From Nitrosopumilus sp. (GTDB lineage Archaea; Thermoproteota; Nitrososphaeria; Nitrososphaerales; Nitrosopumilaceae), in contig OZ245003.1 of NCBI GenBank assembly GCA_965223425.1, positions 1 to 64,000 of the forward strand: a stretch of DNA of 64,000 nt, read 5' to 3'. Under the pieces are notes generated by a model. It did not search any database. It was not told where the DNA came from and was given only the letters and a program-made list of their open reading frames with translations. Positions 52,921 to 63,609 of the stretch are shown piece by piece. A program made the position numbers and the translations under genes. How positions within the stretch are numbered: position 1 is the first letter of the stretch; the number at the start of each line of letters is the position of its first letter.

Positions 52921-54286
52921 CAGTAGTTCCCAGATGTAGATTTACCGCAACCGCAACTGGCATCGGTTCTACTTGCCTCGATCATTGACAAACAACTCGT
53001 TTCTGCTTGTAATGTACACGATAAACAACGCCATGGTGAGTTTTTTTCCCGCAGAAGACACTCTTCCGTGCCTCTTTCCCGCATCAAGGCAGAACCTGGC
53101 AATCCTCCACAGGTTGTACAGCAGCAGCGGCAGGTAAAACATCAGCAGCCTCACAGACAGGGAGTTGCTGCATGTCCTGCCCATGATCTCCTTTATGACG
53201 CGAAACCCCGTCTCGATGCCCCATCTCTTGCGGTACTGCTCCGGTATGATGCCTGTCATGGCTCTGGCGCTCCTGATGGGAATGTTTGTTGCAAACGCAA
53301 TGTATTGCTCCTCCTCCTCTTCCCCCTCCCCCTTTTTCTTCTTCTTCCTGTCTCTTTTGACAATTACAAGGTTGTAGGTCACAGTTACGCCGTCTTTGTT
53401 GGTCATTGACTGCTGCGATACCTGGCTTGCCTTTCCGTCCTTGTACATCTTGACTATCCTCTTGATCTTGGAGTTCATGATGACAGGCATAATGTAGCGG
53501 CACCCGCCCTTTCCTGCCTCTGTCATGCAGTCAACGTTGTAAAAGGCGCGGTCGTACAGGAACACAGTCTTTGAGTGTGCGCCCCCTCTGAGGATTTTCG
53601 TGCGTGTTTTGGCTATAAAATCGGCCAGTTTTTCCTTTGCCGGTAGCAGCTGCGATTCCAGGACAATCTGCGAGGAGTCCCTGCCGACTCCGTGCACTGC
53701 GACATACGAGAGAAACGTGGATGTTCCTGCCCTTGGACGCGACTTTCTTGTATGCTCCTGCAGCTGCTCCCCATGGTATGGTATGTCCGTAACGTCTATT
53801 GCAATGGCGTCGATGTCCTGCAGCATTCCTGCACGGCAGGCGTGCCGCACCGTGCGTGCCAGCGTCCTTGCACACCAGGCCTGCACGTCTGCCGGTTTGA
53901 CGCCACGGACTGCAGACATGACCAGGTCTGCATCAGGCGTACGTGCACCCGTGTCTTGAAGCCTGTTGTGCCGTACGAGGGATTCTACAAACGTGTTTCT
54001 CTCAGACGCCTTGATTAGCACGTCCAGTATGTCATTGCATCCGTATACGGCGTTGTGCCTCTCAGACATTGGCATGCCAAGCTTTTGAAACGACGAGCGC
54101 AAGATTTTAAACCGGTTTGATGTTATATTGTACTGGCGTGCGATCAGTTCGTCATGTAATTCGACTTTCATGACATATTGCACGCCGTAGCCTAATCTGG
54201 ATCTTTGCATTGCAGTTATGCGGTAACGCACCGGCATCTGGGCATAAACCTACATCTGGGCACAAATCTACATCTGGGAACTACTG
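52921..54286 (-). mobile_element. ISH3-family element with 4-bp TSD (ATGT)
   Basis: TIRs CAGTAGTTCCCAGATGTAG / CTACATCTGGGAACTACTG; ATGT at 52917-52920 and 54287-54290. Confidence 0.93.
52969..54237 (-). CDS. ISH3-family transposase, intact frame
   Basis: AIDVTD, YDRAFY, YRKRWGIETGFR; start codon uncertain. Confidence 0.9.
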   Translation of the reverse strand: MPVRYRITAMQRSRLGYGVQYVMKVELHDELIARQYNITSNRFKILRSSFQKLGMPMSERHNAVYGCNDILDVLIKASERNTFVESLVRHNRLQDTGARTPDADLVMSAVRGVKPADVQAWCARTLARTVRHACRAGMLQDIDAIAIDVTDIPYHGEQLQEHTRKSRPRAGTSTFLSYVAVHGVGRDSSQIVLESQLLPAKEKLADFIAKTRTKILRGGAHSKTVFLYDRAFYNVDCMTEAGKGGCRYIMPVIMNSKIKRIVKMYKDGKASQVSQQSMTNKDGVTVTYNLVIVKRDRKKKKKGEGEEEEEQYIAFATNIPIRSARAMTGIIPEQYRKRWGIETGFRVIKEIMGRTCSNSLSVRLLMFYLPLLLYNLWRIARFCLDAGKRHGRVSSAGKKLTMALFIVYITSRNELFVNDRGK

Positions 54287-55541
54287 ATGTGGCAGACTCG
54301 CTCATGCAGTGCCCCAACTGGGTGTCCTTCTGGGTGGAACGCTTCAAGGAGGAGAAGGGCGGCATAGACGCCCTCCGGGATCTTCCAAAGACAGGCAGGC
54401 CGCCAAAGGTTCGGTTGGACAAGATTGCAAGGGTTGTATCAGATGCAAACAGCAGCGGCATTATTACGCCAAAAAGATTCAAAAGCGACATACAAAAAAG
54501 ATTCAAAGTAAAATACCACATAACCAGCATCAGAAAGATAATGCACAAGCTTGGAATGTCTGCCAAGACGGCTCAGCGCATCCACATCAGCAGGGCAGAA
54601 ATTGACAAAATCAAAAGGTGGCAACACAATGCAAAAAGGCGGATTTCACGCCTGGAATTGAAGGGTTTTACAACTGTCGTTTTTGACGAATCGATATTCA
54701 TCGACGATCCTGCAAGTGGCGCAAAGTACTGGTCACCAAAAGGGGAGCCAATCACAACGACATACAAGGGACGGCACGGCAGGGTGGTGGCATACGGCTC
54801 CATTGCGACAGACGGCAGGCAGTTCTTTAGGACATATGACAGGTTTGACAAGGAGACGGTTCTGCAATACATCAAGGAGATGACAAGTCATTTTGGCAAG
54901 GTGACAATCATCATGGACAACGCGCCGCAGCACAAGGCAAGGATTGTAAAAGAGTTTCTTGCAGGCAACCCCGATGTCAGGACAATATGGCTTCCGACTG
55001 CAACGCCTGAGCTCAGTGTAGTTGAGGAGTACTGGCATCAGGCAAAACGGGACGTGTCGGTATCTGAATATTACGCTACGGTTGTGCACATGCGCCATGC
55101 AATGTCAGAATATTTCAGGACAGCCCGTCCCAAGCTTGATGCGATGAAGTTTATCTGTAGAAGGTCGCTCACTCTCAAAAACTTTTGATTGACACTATAG
55201 GTATTGTTCTTTTTTCTTTAATTGATCTAAGGTACAAGCGATTTCATCATATTTTTTTGCAAGTTCTATTTCTTTTTCGTACATTATGTAACTACTTTTT
55301 TTACTCATAAATATCTCTCTTCAGAATTTCAACCGTGGCGGATCTCCTTATAAACCATAATCTTAACATTACAACTTTGAATTTGTGAAGGATGTATAAT
55401 AAATTGCCGATTTGTATCATGCGAAATGGACAAAAGAGAATATTCAAGCTGCTCCCCATCTGTCTTTCAATGTTTCAGGCCGTATTTATCTTTGAAAATA
55501 GTAAAAGATATCTGCTTATCATACATTGCAATATTTTTGGA

Positions 55542-58870: not shown

Positions 58871-59365
58871 ATGGCACTTCAAAGTAAGATGACAGTATAT
58901 GCCGCATTAGCTGGAGTTTTGGCTTTAATGGGAGGAATTGTTTACTATGCTAGTCTAGATAATGTCGAACTTGAGCAAGTCGAAATTGAATTAACGAGTG
59001 TAGAATTAAGGGATGTCAACACAATAAATAATCAAGCAAAATTTGACGTCACATTTCTTGTAAAGAATCCAAGTGACAAGACATTTACAGTTTCATTGAT
59101 TGGATACCAACTTTACGGAGATGGAATACTGTTAGGTTCGGGGCAGTATTCTACAGCAGACATAGCATTGCCTGGAAGAGCTGTGTTTTATTCAGGTGCA
59201 GAAGTTCCTTTGAAAAGCACATTTGTTCTCAGTAAATCTGAGATTAATTCAGAGATTTACCAAGACGCCATAGAAAATAAGATCAATGGTTTTGAAGCCG
59301 AAGGAAGTATCACTACCGAGTCTTCATGGAGTACTGTTGAAAAAGAATTCAAAACTGGATTTTAA
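58871..59365 (+). CDS. Membrane-anchored LEA_2/WHy-like protein
   Basis: TM then FLVKNPS..IGYQLY..LLGSG; ATG at 58871. Confidence 0.7.
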   Translation: MALQSKMTVYAALAGVLALMGGIVYYASLDNVELEQVEIELTSVELRDVNTINNQAKFDVTFLVKNPSDKTFTVSLIGYQLYGDGILLGSGQYSTADIALPGRAVFYSGAEVPLKSTFVLSKSEINSEIYQDAIENKINGFEAEGSITTESSWSTVEKEFKTGF

Positions 59366-59613
59366 TTGAAAAGTGGGCCGGGAGACACCCCTAAAACAAA
59401 TGGTTTTTTTGACAAACGCCACAACAGAAGATTTGATTGTAATCCTTTATCAACACGCTTGAATCAGAAAGGTGTAAGAGAATCCGTAATGGATGCAGGT
59501 AGTAAAAGCGATGCTGATTCATCTGTGTTAAAAAAAAGACTCGGACATCCACATAGCGAAAAATAGGAAAAAATCGCCTTAAATCAAAATCAAACATACA
59601 AAGTTGGAATAGA

Positions 59614-60989
59614 ATGGCAAAAGAACCAACAAAAAAACTGCTAAGCGATCCAGATGTGCGCAGATGGTACGAAAATATGCGCAGATCCAGCAAGCTTAAC
59701 TCTGATGTGAGGCTTAGACGACTGAATCTGTTCTGTGACCGGATAAAGATGACCCCCAAAGGAGCTTGTAGGGGTTGGTAAAGATAACCCCATGAAGGCA
59801 GAGAACATCATGCTGGATCACGTCTCATGGATGGAGGATCAAAACTATGCACCAGGATACATTGCCGGCATGATAAGGACGGTAAAGGCATGGCTTGATT
59901 ACAATCACATCGAGATAAGGCGGAAGATAAAGATCACAAACGCCGATGTGCAGGTAAGCATCAGGATGAAAGGATACCTGAAGGAAAGCAATTGCAACAG
60001 ATTCTCAATGCTGCACCTCCACGATGCAGACAATCATAAGCATGATTGCATTTGCAGGAATCAGGCCGCAGGTCATGGGACTTGCTGACGGAACTGATGG
60101 GTTGTGCCTCTCAGATCTGCAGGATCTGGTACTAGACGGTCAAAATATCAAATTTTCCAAGATGCCTGCAAGGGTGGTAGTAAGACCCAATCTGAGCAAG
60201 ACACGAAACAAGTACTTTACATTTCTGACAGAAGAAGGCTGCAAATACGTACTAGGCTACCTGCAGCAACGACTAGCAAAGGAGGAGATACTAAAACCAG
60301 AGTCGCCGTTGATAACTACGGACTTTGGATATCGCCTCAAGGGATGGCGTAAGATTGGCTCATCTAACAACAGGTTTTTGGTCACAAACGCCATAACCCA
60401 GTCCATACGTCAGATAATTCGTAGCGTGATCAAGATACGTCCGTATGCCCTTCGGTCGTACTTTGACAGCCAGCTTCTAATTGCCGAAAGCCACGGATGC
60501 ATGACACACTCGTATCGCCAGTTCTTTATGGGACATAAAGGAGACACGGAGTCTCGATATACTACCAACAAGGGAAGATTGACTGAACAGATGACCGAAG
60601 ACATGAGGCGCTCTTTTGCACAGAGTCAGATGTTCTTATCAACCAACATGGAAGATCACACTGAAGACAGCAGGAAGAACATGCTCATAGACATGTGGCG
60701 CCAGCAGGCCTCCATGTATGGGATAGATCCCAATTCCCTTTTGCAAAACGATGTGGACGAATCCTCATCACATGGTGTCAAATCCAGCAAAGATGTTGAT
60801 GTAAATGTGTCTACGGGATCGGAAGTGCCCAAAAACGGCATTACAGATGAGAAGGCAGAATCGTCACCATATGAGACTCAAATTGTTGATGGAGAGAAGA
60901 CTCTGCTCTCATATGCCGCACAGGGATGGGATCTGGTAAAGGATCTGCCTGATGCAAGATTTCTGATTAGACGCAGAATTCCAACTTAA
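59614..60989 (+). pseudogene. Tyrosine recombinase/integrase with about three frameshifts
   Basis: MAKEPTKKLLSDPDVRRWYEN.. N-terminal domain in three frames; catalytic AGIRP, SKT, YALRSYF, FMGHKG, RYT. Confidence 0.88.
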
Positions 60990-61020: not shown

Positions 61021-61128
61021 CTAGGACCAGTGATGCATTCTGTCTATGGCCAGCTTTCTAGAATAACCAAACTCCTTCATCAGGCGTCTGACAAATTCCT
61101 CATCCTCTTTTGAAAGCTTGCTCTTCAT
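61021..61128 (-). CDS. 35-aa peptide downstream of the ART gene
   Basis: MKSKLSKEDEEFVRRLMKEFGYSRKLAIDRMHHWS; GGAGG upstream; starts 2 bp after the ART stop. Confidence 0.55.
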   Translation of the reverse strand: MKSKLSKEDEEFVRRLMKEFGYSRKLAIDRMHHWS

Positions 61129-61782
61129 GGTTATAGTTGTCCTCCGACATACTTAATCGTTATCTCCAAATTTTGCCTTTTTTCTATAATCTTGACTATT
61201 TTTTCCAGTCTTTTTTTAAATGCGGATGTTCCGTCTCTAGACACTGTCATGCTGTTGATACGTAGTCTTGCGCCCTTTTTGATCTGCACTTCGCACTCTC
61301 GCATATACCAACCGGATTGACTGCCTCCGAATCTCTCATATGGATTGTATGTGTGCCGACCTCTAGGCGTCACATATATGATGCGCCTTGTCACATATGT
61401 GACTGGGCAATAATCTGACGGATTCATTTCCAATATGTCCATTTCTACTACCAATCCACGCTTTTTTCTTTTTGTTGCAAAGAGTGTTGCTATATCAGCA
61501 TCAATTGAACACGACACAAAATCGTTTCTTGCAGCATACATTATTCTGCTCTGATATCCTACTGCACCCTTCATCTTGGCAATGCTTGCCAACTCTGAGA
61601 TTTGCATGCCCCGGTATACCGTCTTGGTTCTTTTCAGAACCGTCTTTATCATCTTGTTGATTTTGTTCATATGGCTTTCAAGACCCTGCAGTATCAGGCT
61701 CTGATTCATGGCTCTGTCAAGAATCATTCTGTATTTTTTTAGCTCAGACAGCCTGATTATTATCCCGTCTGTTCCCAGCACC

Positions 61783-62857
61783 GGGGTTGTTGCCAAATTC
61801 ACCCCCATGATCTAATTTTGTGATTTTGTACACATATTGATCAGAGAGGATGTGAGTTCTCTAATGAGTGATCATAAGAGACGTGATCAGTACTGGAAGT
61901 ACTATCACGAGGCCCACACCCAAGAACTGGATTTTCTCACGTCCCATATAGTTTCTTTGATTGTGAAAAATCCGTGTCCTGTCCGGGACAGACAGTCCGG
62001 TCCTGAACGCAACCGGGTTCACAGCAGGAACAAGCTGGCATGCATCTGCATACTCATGGTATGTCTAAACTACACATACCGGGATATGGAGAACCTTGTA
62101 TCCAAGCTTAAGCTGCCGTGGGACGAACCCGTACCTGATCACACTACTGTCTCCAAGTTCATGCAAAAGATTCCTGTTGCATGGCTTGAAGATATCATTG
62201 CCTGCACGGCAGCATCGTGCCTTGCAGGATTTGATGCCTCTGATCTCACGCTGGCATCAGACAGCAGCGGCGTTGCCACTGACAGGTATGAAAGAGTGCA
62301 AAAAAAAGGCCAGAAACAGGCACAACAGGAGGCAAAGCGTCAAAAGAAATACCTGAAATGGCACGTGGCCTCGGTACTGGGCCTGCAGGTCATACTCTCC
62401 TGCCGCATCACATCCAACAAGATGGCAGATACTACCGTCTTTGCCTCGCTGCTAAAGAAGATCAAAAAGACAGGCATTGCCTTTGCAGGCAGGTTCAATG
62501 CAGACAGGGGGTATGATTCTGATAGGAACTGCAAGCTTGTCTTTGGTGCCGGCATGACCCCGAACATAAAGCAGAGGGGCAATGCCGTGAACAGATCAAA
62601 AAAGTTCAGGAAAAAGGCCGCAGGACTGTTTGACGTGGAGATCTACAAGAAACGAGGCATGATAGAGGGAATATTTGGAGCAGAGGAGACAGAAGGTCAC
62701 CGGTTGCTGTGCAGGTTCAGAAAGACATCCACAAGAAGGCGGTTTGGACTGTGCAAGACAATAGGATGGAACCTTGAGGTGTTAAACCGTTTGGAGTGTG
62801 CAGCAAGGCAGAATATTGTGGTGGTGGCAGCTTAGATGTGAATTTGGCAACAACCCC
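61783..62857 (+). mobile_element. IS5-family element with 9-bp TSD
   Basis: Perfect TIRs GGGGTTGTTGCCAAATTCAC; TSD CCCAGCACC at 61774-61782 and 62858-62866. Confidence 0.93.
61837..62835 (+). CDS. IS5-family DDE transposase, intact frame
   Basis: PDHTT, DSSG, KWH, ADRGYD, YKKRGMIEGIF. Confidence 0.9.
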   Translation: MIREDVSSLMSDHKRRDQYWKYYHEAHTQELDFLTSHIVSLIVKNPCPVRDRQSGPERNRVHSRNKLACICILMVCLNYTYRDMENLVSKLKLPWDEPVPDHTTVSKFMQKIPVAWLEDIIACTAASCLAGFDASDLTLASDSSGVATDRYERVQKKGQKQAQQEAKRQKKYLKWHVASVLGLQVILSCRITSNKMADTTVFASLLKKIKKTGIAFAGRFNADRGYDSDRNCKLVFGAGMTPNIKQRGNAVNRSKKFRKKAAGLFDVEIYKKRGMIEGIFGAEETEGHRLLCRFRKTSTRRRFGLCKTIGWNLEVLNRLECAARQNIVVVAA

Positions 62858-63107
62858 CCCAGCACCACATTGGAGGGCGTAGGTAAAATCCTCGCCTTGC
62901 CGTTGATTCGAGGCAGAGAAAAACGCTCAAACTCCTTGTCGATATCTCTTCCAACGTTACTCTTACTTACCGCTGTAAACACTCTAGAAAATCGTAATTG
63001 CGTGTCTTTAATGGCCCGCAGATTCGCTCTTGACAATCTGCCAACACTGCCTGATTTTTGACCCCCTTTCTTAGAATCCCTGGCTGGGCCTTTTTTTTGA
63101 TTTAGTA

Positions 63108-63266
63108 TCAAAACTGCTTCATTCTCCGAATCAACCTATAGTACAGCTGGCGCACCGTGATTCTGTACCCCATGTCTTCATAATCCTCTACAATTTCTGC
63201 CATCTTGTCCAAAAGCTTCTGGCTTGAGCTCCGAAGTGACTTTGTGGCGTATGCTATCTTTGCCAT
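63108..63266 (-). CDS. 52-aa protein with TVRQLYY motif (TopoVI-A/Spo11-like wHTH N-terminus, probably truncated)
   Basis: MAKIAYATKSLRSSSQKLLDKMAEIVEDYEDMGYRITVRQLYYRLIRRMKQF; TGA overlaps the ART start TTG. Confidence 0.55.
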   Translation of the reverse strand: MAKIAYATKSLRSSSQKLLDKMAEIVEDYEDMGYRITVRQLYYRLIRRMKQF

Positions 63267-63273
63267 TAAACAA

Positions 63274-63290
63274 TACCGTAATTTACGGTA
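63274..63290. promoter_or_regulatory. 8-1-8 palindrome, putative operator
   Basis: TACCGTAA-T-TTACGGTA, 7 bp upstream of the 63266 ATG. Confidence 0.5.
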
Positions 63291-63454
63291 CTATCCTATA
63301 TGGGTTTTGGGGCAAAAAAAGGTCGGGATGATCATGTTCGAATCCGAACTCAAACGTAATTGTTGAATTCTAACCTCAACTTACCTCTGTACATGGCAAG
63401 GCCGGATTTAGACAGCAAAAATGGAGCTAATTTTGAGCTCGATAAAGTTGAGAG

Positions 63455-63528
63455 TGGGCCGAGAGAGATTCGAACTCACGATCACCGCCGTGTCGAGGCG
63501 GTATCCTAACCAGCTAGACTACCGGCCC
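63455..63528 (-). tRNA. tRNA-Val(GAC)
   Basis: GGGCCGG acceptor, CCGCC-TCGACAC-GGCGG anticodon arm, TTCGAAT T-loop; no encoded CCA. Confidence 0.95.
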
Positions 63529-63609
63529 ATTGAAAAACAAGACTAGATGCGGGATTATTAACGTTTAACAAAAGAAAGAAAGAATAAAAAGAAAGAATGC
63601 GTGAAGTAG

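Follow-up and report, generated by a model that had tools for sequence, protein, structure and literature searches.

A putative ADP-ribosyltransferase toxin and 35-residue antitoxin on a decayed integrated element of a Nitrosopumilus genome

We analyzed a stretch of 64,000 nt from Nitrosopumilus sp. (NCBI GenBank assembly GCA_965223425.1, contig OZ245003.1, positions 1 to 64,000 of the forward strand), and refer to the whole of it as the window. Near its end, adjoining a tRNA-Val gene, lie a tyrosine-integrase pseudogene on the plus strand and, convergent with it on the minus strand, a 52-amino-acid (aa) open reading frame (ORF), a gene for an ADP-ribosyltransferase (ART) that is split by an insertion sequence (IS), and an intact ORF for a 35-aa peptide (Table 1). 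A preliminary description of this DNA had seen here an element-borne, recently disrupted operon of three genes: a winged helix-turn-helix stub, an ART, and a peptide.

Table 1. Features at the locus, in order of position in the window
Position	Strand	Feature	Basis or detail
59372..59385		Candidate left attachment site (attL), a 14-nt copy (13/14 identical) of the tRNA-Val 3′ end	Short-match comparison
59578..60989	+	Tyrosine-integrase pseudogene in three reading frames	tblastn with the 529-aa integrase of G306; ORFs 59614-59781, 59792-60088, 60024-60989
61021..61128	-	Intact 35-aa peptide, putative micro-antitoxin, C-terminal Trp-Ser	Homologues, predicted complex
61131..61782	-	ART gene, C-terminal part, 216 codons and stop, whole catalytic domain	Model, motifs
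61774..61782		Target-site duplication, left copy CCCAGCACC, 9 bp	Identical to right copy
61783..62857	+	Insertion sequence, 1075 bp, perfect 20-nt terminal inverted repeats (61783-61802 and 62838-62857)	Transposase ORF 61837-62835
62858..62866		Target-site duplication, right copy CCCAGCACC, 9 bp	Identical to left copy
62858..63111	-	ART gene, N-terminal part, 84 codons, basic	Aligns with N-terminal parts of P0002 and P0003 up to the junction
63108..63266	-	52-aa remnant of a Mini-A (type IIB topoisomerase A-like) gene	phrog_6247, G306 alignment
63274..63301	-	Promoter-proximal region: palindrome 63274-63290, TATA-like ATATAGG 63295-63301	G306 alignment
63454..63528	-	tRNA-Val (GAC), integration target	3′ end 63453-63466 is the candidate right attachment site (attR)

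The transposase ORF of the IS matches Pfam DDE_Tnp_1 (expectation value, E, 5.3e-10), which is the sole basis for a family label (IS5 versus IS4). The two copies of the target-site duplication are identical over all 9 bp, as had been reported. When the IS and one duplicate are removed in a script by coordinates, the flanking ORFs join into a minus-strand frame of 298 codons with zero internal stops, in which the previously named motifs YRG, FVSCS, and ECEV fall at positions 138, 170, and 244. Uninterrupted homologues (P0002, P0003, and P0004; 280, 314, and 246 aa) continue across the junction without a break, as PTPSN[IV]VLG and then [TM]D...IRLSE, rather than matching one half only, and a homologue-profile search of the window's own genome returns both enzyme halves and nothing else (E of 2.9e-24 for the N-terminal half). 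Judged by these comparisons, the two ORFs are halves of one gene and not an artefact, so that the fusion proposed in the preliminary description stands.

The TTG start of the enzyme at 63111 overlaps the TGA of the 52-aa ORF, and the TTGA overlap noted earlier is thus present at 63108-63111. The open frame offers no ATG, and no common start codon other than this TTG, so that the true start of the enzyme is uncertain. The N-terminal 84 residues are basic and by inspection lack a hydrophobic leader, and library scans detected no secretion-related domain in the enzyme.

The host genome (2.64 Mb) has 33 matches to this IS, 12 of them full length. The present copy is one of four at 100% identity; seven others have 89-93% and the last has 78%. 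Since the copy is 100% identical to three others, the IS is active and its insertion into the ART gene young, in keeping with the recent knock-out that had been proposed. Contigs from two sequencing runs (X1 and X2) enter the ends of the IS from both flanks and none spans an empty site, though contigs cannot show absence; those of X5 include two short pieces of the C-terminal half of the enzyme. The genome is in general rich in insertion sequences, and the window contains two more transposase-like ORFs, of 422 aa (52969-54237) and 327 aa (54205-55188).

The C-terminal 216 residues were modeled from a 39-row alignment (predicted local distance difference test, pLDDT, 94.6; predicted template modeling score, pTM, 0.89). 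A Foldseek search of the PDB gave four matches at E ≤ 0.001, all of them DarT (E of 3.9e-5 to 4.8e-4), followed by Tpt1, TreX, and cholera toxin A1. An exhaustive search of 48,161 chains, independent of Foldseek, placed DarT at the top (Z of 7.4, with a root-mean-square deviation of 3.4 and 136 aligned residues, and 7.3), then Tpt1 (6.6), KptA (6.2), TreX (6.1, 23% identity), and pertussis S1 (5.6); DarT1, EcPltA, the CNFy ART-like domain, Scabin, LT, diphtheria-toxin homologues, and Arr are further ART matches, and the top 25 rows are all ARTs or ART-like domains. Given the middling Z scores, we base the fold assignment on the almost pure composition of this match list together with the motifs; by the model, the enzyme has an ART fold, as the preliminary description had expected. 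In a viral structure library the top matches are uncharacterised archaeal lipothrixvirus proteins (E of 3.0e-6 and 1.4e-4) and tailed-phage proteins. The closest are an uncharacterised Betalipothrixvirus protein and a "conserved lipothrixviral protein" of SIFV2, a hint that ART-like proteins of such shape are also carried by archaeal filamentous viruses.

Conservation of the catalytic residues is high across the 39 aligned members of the enzyme family: the Arg is kept in 38 and the Gly next to it in 37, the first Ser in 33 and the second Ser or Thr in all 39, the Glu or Gln in 31 (Glu 21, Gln 10), and the last Glu in 38. R-S-E with an STS motif and ExE is described as the mark of the arginine-modifying ARTs of the cholera-toxin clade (PMC8120803). 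By its motifs the enzyme belongs with this R / S-x-S / E-x-E set, which agrees with the R-S-ExE signature read earlier from the sequence, and the ExE suggests a protein arginine as its target. On the same grounds it would work like an R-S-ExE mono-ART, outside every catalogued family that we scanned.

A HMMER search with the family profile (1.84 billion representatives) found 68 members at E ≤ 1e-3, 50 at ≤ 1e-10, and 15 at ≤ 1e-30. In some members the ART domain forms the C-terminus of a much longer protein; a few matches in multiple stretches are immunoglobulin-repeat proteins and are probably spurious. One of the 39 aligned members matches ADPrib_exo_Tox (E of 9.6e-4, 19 bits, below the 23.4 cut-off). 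In PHROGs the enzyme matches phrog_832, "RNA polymerase ADP-ribosylase" (E of 4e-4; two of the 39 members match at E ≤ 0.01), and a protein atlas lists a Mod_ADP_RT cluster at a score of 0.89, which we take as a lead only. A sequence-profile search of the PDB gave nothing significant (best E 0.082, unrelated). By tblastn the C-terminal half has no match in 50,697 phage records and none in plasmids, and the contigs returned by pattern scans (16 genome, 58 viral, and 206 metagenome matches) include no relative by the same method.

The peptide ORF starts 2 nt after the TAA of the enzyme, as had been described. In a relative of the same genus (G306), whose enzyme (270 aa) is 51% identical to that of the window, a 36-aa homologue also begins at +2 nt, and in G320, where the enzyme is 31% identical, a 46-aa homologue begins at -4 nt. 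Homologues lie 3′ of the ART in G306, G320, and G110; a hidden Markov model (HMM) of three peptides found a fourth in G110 (E of 2e-6, among 935 small ORFs). Identity between loci is 31-43%, and the four-way alignment has invariant M1, K4, E10, G21, A27, and W34. A collection of 5.8 billion proteins contains six clusters of such peptides, of 35-46 aa, all with the W-S end. By these comparisons the 35-aa peptide is a genuine conserved micro-protein and not an accident of ORF finding, and in this respect the preliminary description was right. It had also given the peptide a GGAGG of its own; the letters are present 12 nt upstream of the ATG, as a signal they fare less well, being the two terminal Gly codons of the enzyme, which G306 (where the enzyme ends IGVQQ) does not retain.

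Two wider relationships of the peptide were considered and rejected: a truncated UBA/NAC-like motif (Pfam gives no UBA match for any peptide), and homology with the ORFs directly downstream of distant ART-like genes, in which an x-x-W motif can be made out by eye (no significant match among 935 small ORFs, the best E being 0.05). One distant ART-like ORF, of 343 aa and without the first Glu of ExE, occurs in G149 with a 127-aa ORF at +2 nt (L017 1073-1456, minus strand); the latter has a weak NAC match (E of 0.13) and a C-terminal helix-Gly-x-x-R-K-x-A that resembles the peptide by eye. The peptide motif G-x-x-R-x-x-A-x-x-x-x-x-x-W-S also appears in tandem paralogues (L015 1027-1278, minus strand; L061; L062), and G320 has two loci with two peptide copies each.

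We predicted the complex for the intact G306 pair in place of the window's split enzyme, from our own alignments of 38 and 3 rows. It scored 0.88 in three of three runs, whereas none of three controls exceeded 0.01. The mark set for this score is reached by 116 of 157 solved complexes and two of 215 mismatched pairs, counts that hold only roughly here because of the use of our own alignments. At least 90% of contacts are shared between runs, and the partner pLDDT is at least 82. In the predicted complex W35 of the peptide contacts R110 and G111 (of YRG), S143 (the first Ser of S-x-S), and F154, and the interface also takes in E202, F212, R214, and E215, the last being the first Glu of ExE. The corresponding residues in the C-terminal half of the window enzyme are R57, G58, S90, F101, E149, Y159, R161, and E162. 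The peptide therefore probably binds the ART over its active site in the model, and a terminal aromatic residue on residues that bind nicotinamide adenine dinucleotide (NAD+) suggests an occluding inhibitor.

When 401 genomes sampled across the class were searched with the enzyme profile, six had matches, and these six belong to a single family; with a broader profile, 17 of 401 genomes of that family have matches, most of them to distant paralogues, and the peptide profile matches 19 of 401 family genomes at E ≤ 0.01. For a tally of linkage we used the 12 peptide places found at E ≤ 1e-5 in eight of the 401 family genomes, and left out 13 places at E of 0.001-0.01 that are likely due to chance, several of them falling within ~465-aa frames in another genus. 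None of the 12 places has an interrupted peptide frame, although the Trp is replaced in G574 and no common start codon precedes the peptide at G110:C53. The state of the ART varies among them: it is intact at two (G306:C114, G320:C3) and broken or a remnant at five, not found at three (G258 and two places in G565), and undecidable at two, both on G320:C115, where contigs end. The five damaged copies comprise the one split by the IS in the window, one fragmented over several frames (G110:C71), two reduced to the C-terminal part (G110:C53, G227), and one of which only an "ITIKY" tail is recognized, by eye (G574). The peptide thus follows an intact, split, or remnant ART at seven of the 12 places. 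Repeated loss of the enzyme with persistence of the peptide fits, as far as these sequences go, the wreckage expected of a toxin-antitoxin pair.

In G258 (L057, C1:1568742-1571852) the peptide is an orphan that follows a DPPY DNA-methyltransferase-like ORF, with two stop codons between them, and in G565 two adjacent proteins of ~97 aa end in the peptide motif (RWS), and the surroundings contain no ART. Five copies of a distant ART-like ORF (289-309 aa) occur in G236 (L028, L040, L047, L049, and L050; E of 1e-11 to 1e-20 against the family profile), with near-identical C-termini. None is followed by a recognizable peptide gene, and they may belong to an element present in several copies.

The 52-aa ORF, which the preliminary description had taken for the first gene of a three-gene operon and a partner of the enzyme, does not hold that place. 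It matches phrog_6247 "DNA topoisomerase" (E of 3.1e-9, profile positions 2-48 of 303) and is 58-60% identical to residues 1-48 of a 292-aa Mini-A protein that is whole in G306, where integrase and enzyme flank its gene; a paralogue of 296 aa in the window's own genome is likewise similar to the ORF. The link of its TxRxLYY motif to proteins of the TopoVI-A type was correctly made: the 5Y-CAP tyrosine motif R-x-x-[Y/F]-Y is present (VRQLYY). The Toprim E...DxDxxG and the xWELDAL (T2BI) box are absent from the ORF, ~240 codons being gone, whereas the full-length relatives have R-Q-[LI]-Y-Y, GDHDPSG, and SWELDAL. For Mini-A of mobile elements the 5Y-CAP motif has been described and the WELDAL box given as discriminating (PMC7671362); there Mini-A is tied to viruses, whereas here it is found on a plasmid-like element with ParM-like and TraG-like genes. 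A tblastn search of the window with the G306 protein finds no counterpart of Mini-A residues beyond 48, and Mini-A is absent from the other ART loci. For these two reasons we read the 52-aa ORF as a deletion remnant and not as a third component. An internal deletion in frame, which would make its last six codons the native 3′ end of Mini-A, was considered; in DNA the two are only about half identical over ~25 nt. A 69-aa ORF upstream of the enzyme in G320 was considered as a second Mini-A stub and rejected (20% identity in MAFFT, no tblastn match at E < 1).

Upstream of the remnant, 29-35 nt from its ATG, lies an ATATAGG that may, by our own reading of the letters, be an archaeal TATA box; ATATAG is kept upstream of the G306 Mini-A. 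It is probable that the remnant continues to supply the start of the transcript and the promoter that served enzyme and peptide. An 8-1-8 palindrome to which the preliminary description had drawn attention is indeed present (TACCGTAA-T-TTACGGTA) and is imperfect in G306. Because it is one of five such palindromes in the window (30 shuffles gave a mean of 1.5 and a maximum of 4), it is unremarkable on its own and does not stand out as a signal.

The region from 59.4 to 63.5 kb has a GC content of 0.436-0.437, compared with 0.37-0.378 in its surroundings. The candidate attL is the top short match between 59200-59700 and 63260-63600 (E of 0.13 in this small search) and lies directly past the last host gene and directly before the climb in GC from ~0.35 to ~0.45. 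Together with the tRNA-Val 3′ end it would make a plausible attL/attR pair ~4.1 kb apart, although the match is statistically weak. The integrase aligns with that of G306 over residues 28-178 in frame 1, 87-156 in frame 2, and 172-527 in frame 3, at 41-70% identity; spread over three frames, and so with at least two frameshifts, it is a pseudogene, and the element has lost the ability to excise by itself.

In G306 the gene order is integrase, Mini-A, ART, peptide, an MreB/ParM-like gene (library match at E of 1.4e-10), a gene for a 419-aa protein, and one for a TrwB/TraG-like ATPase (E of 1.2e-7), and by this gene content it is a plasmid-like or conjugative-type integrated element. In the window the block of stub, ART, and peptide is inverted relative to the integrase, and the rest of the element is missing. 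The region is best read as what is left, over ~4 kb, of a plasmid-like element that had integrated at tRNA-Val, with the two-gene module as its only surviving cargo; that the module is element-borne, as first proposed, agrees with its place beside the tRNA gene and an integrase. A survey of thaumarchaeal integrated elements covers this class of element, with no mention of an ART in the part of it available to us (PMC6563490). The 296-aa paralogue of Mini-A belongs to a second integrated element in the same genome (L012, C1:480273-483410), in which a 381-aa integrase is followed by the intact Mini-A gene (GDHDPSG, SWELDAL); the own-genome profile search found no ART there. Pfam, NCBIfam, and PADLOC returned no match for the ART, the peptide, the integrase, or Mini-A.

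Conflict systems that pair an ART toxin with a cognate inhibitor are already known from bacteria and phages. The interbacterial systems Tre1-Tri1, TreTu/TriTu, and TreX/TriX likewise have a mono-ART of R-S-E type beside a cognate inhibitor gene. TreX has the highest sequence identity in the structural list (TreTu has a Z of 4.5 and 21% identity), and its DFVSTTI aligns with the DFVSxSI of the family, not significantly (E of 0.73). The Tre toxins are C-terminal domains of secreted bacterial proteins of the type VI secretion system and Rhs kind, whereas the window enzyme is stand-alone, apparently cytoplasmic, and on an archaeal element, with a putative inhibitor of only 35 residues. Tri1, which also has a DraG-like hydrolase domain, neutralizes Tre1 partly through active-site occlusion (PMC8120803), and the predicted placement of Trp on the NAD+ site would be a parallel to this.

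DarT-DarG supplies the best structural match, although Pfam DarT matches none of the 39 members of the enzyme family. Its toxin gene comes first and its antitoxin gene second. DarG is a macrodomain that removes the modification (PMC8120803), whereas the partner in the window is a peptide predicted to plug the site, with no macrodomain, and the enzyme signature is that of the cholera-toxin clade. T4 Alt, ModA, and ModB are, like the enzyme here, ARTs of mobile elements, to which the weak phrog_832 match of the two members points. We know of no partner peptide for Alt or Mod. All three T4 enzymes are of the R-S-E type (PMC8120803). ParT-ParS (RES-Xre) is a two-gene toxin-antitoxin system with an ART-fold toxin that stands low in the structural list (Z of 3.6); its antitoxin is Xre-type and not a 35-aa peptide, and the RES-domain triad R-Y-N is unlike R-S-E (PMC8120803).

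We consider it fairly probable that enzyme and peptide form a toxin and micro-antitoxin pair, borne by an integrated element of plasmid-like type that has decayed; enzyme activity, toxicity, target, and neutralization are what we infer from model and sequence. Among the functions offered in the preliminary description, this one is the best fit to the predicted complex and the pattern of decay. The module would consist of a cytoplasmic mono-ART and a translationally adjacent 35-residue peptide that covers the NAD+ cleft, its invariant C-terminal Trp-Ser packing on the catalytic Arg and Ser and excluding NAD+. Were the labile peptide lost, through loss of the element or shut-off of host expression, the freed enzyme would ADP-ribosylate an essential target, and the resulting growth arrest would serve addiction to the element and possibly abortive defence against viruses. 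In the genome of the window the system is dead: the integrase is frameshifted, Mini-A cut to 52 codons, and the enzyme split, while the antitoxin gene is intact.

We also propose, more tentatively, that the peptides of 35-46 aa ending in (R)-W-S may form a minimal antitoxin class, a two-helix hairpin whose C-terminal Trp would enter the nicotinamide pocket of the enzymes, themselves a new family of ARTs. If so, the pair might be the first ADP-ribosylating toxin-antitoxin or abortive system in ammonia-oxidizing archaea, with the peptide module reused in the ~97-aa proteins and left as an orphan guard after loss of the toxin.

Several observations weigh against a toxin-antitoxin pair. The structural Z scores are all below 8, a range in which, by the tool's own warning, common arrangements are possible; none of the 39 family members reaches a Pfam cut-off, and NCBIfam and PADLOC have no match for the enzyme. 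DarT and Tpt1/KptA, which match best in structure, act on nucleic acids, and a protein-arginine target is for that reason not secure. The complex was modeled for the G306 pair with a peptide alignment of three rows, and its pass reflects the model's own confidence only. The peptide occurs without a nearby ART in G258 and, as the C-terminal part of the two ~97-aa proteins, in G565; because of these ART-less occurrences it may have a function of its own. Finally, the toxin-first order is the less common one among type II pairs.

One alternative is that the ART is an enzyme of host takeover or counter-defence, as are T4 Alt, ModA, and ModB, acting at entry of the element on RNA polymerase, translation factors, or defence proteins, with the peptide as its regulator or chaperone. 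The only sequence-library match with a named function, phrog_832, points this way, as do the viral proteins at the top of the viral structure matches, the Mod_ADP_RT lead from the protein atlas, and the place of the G306 gene in an entry-proximal block beside integrase and Mini-A. The phrog_832 match is weak, however, and rare among the members, and the peptide is predicted to lie over the catalytic residues rather than on a distal surface. Repeated loss of the enzyme with retention of the peptide fits a harmful enzyme better than a helpful one, and we regard a takeover function as rather unlikely.

Defence by abortive infection, in which viral shut-off would deplete the peptide and the freed ART would stop the cell or modify viral nucleic acid in the manner of DarTG, shares its mechanism with the toxin-antitoxin pair and is therefore compatible with it. 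DarT is the best structural match, the toxin-first order is that of DarTG, and mobile elements are where many defence systems are located. Against these stand the missing PADLOC match, the missing DarG-like macrodomain, and the lack of other defence genes near the pair in the window or in G306; as an account of its own, defence is no likelier than takeover. An ART fold without a transferase toxin (an NAD+ glycohydrolase, a 2′-phosphotransferase-like enzyme, or a silent binding domain, next to an unrelated co-transcribed peptide gene) would accommodate the middling Z scores, the presence of Tpt1 and KptA among the best structural matches, and the peptides found without an ART, but is quite improbable given the nearly invariant R, S-x-S, and [E/Q]-x-E of the 39 members, which are the set of cholera-clade transferases and not the H-H-h of Tpt1 (PMC8120803), and a peptide that keeps its position at seven loci and is predicted to bind.

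On the toxin-antitoxin reading, the kind of system is known, and by our sequence comparisons what is new to it is the family of the enzyme, an inhibitor of 35 residues, and the lineage of the host; a literature search for an ART toxin in ammonia-oxidizing archaea found no description among the papers listed. The direct interest of the copy in the window is limited by its inactivation. The locus would nevertheless show a decaying element that sheds its toxin and keeps its antitoxin. The enzyme family is rare, absent from Pfam, NCBIfam, PADLOC, and PHROGs except for one weak match, and carried on mobile elements of nitrifying archaea, a globally important group. If the Trp of the peptide does block the NAD+ site, the peptide would be unusually small among natural protein inhibitors of ARTs, and could serve as a simple scaffold on which to study such inhibition.

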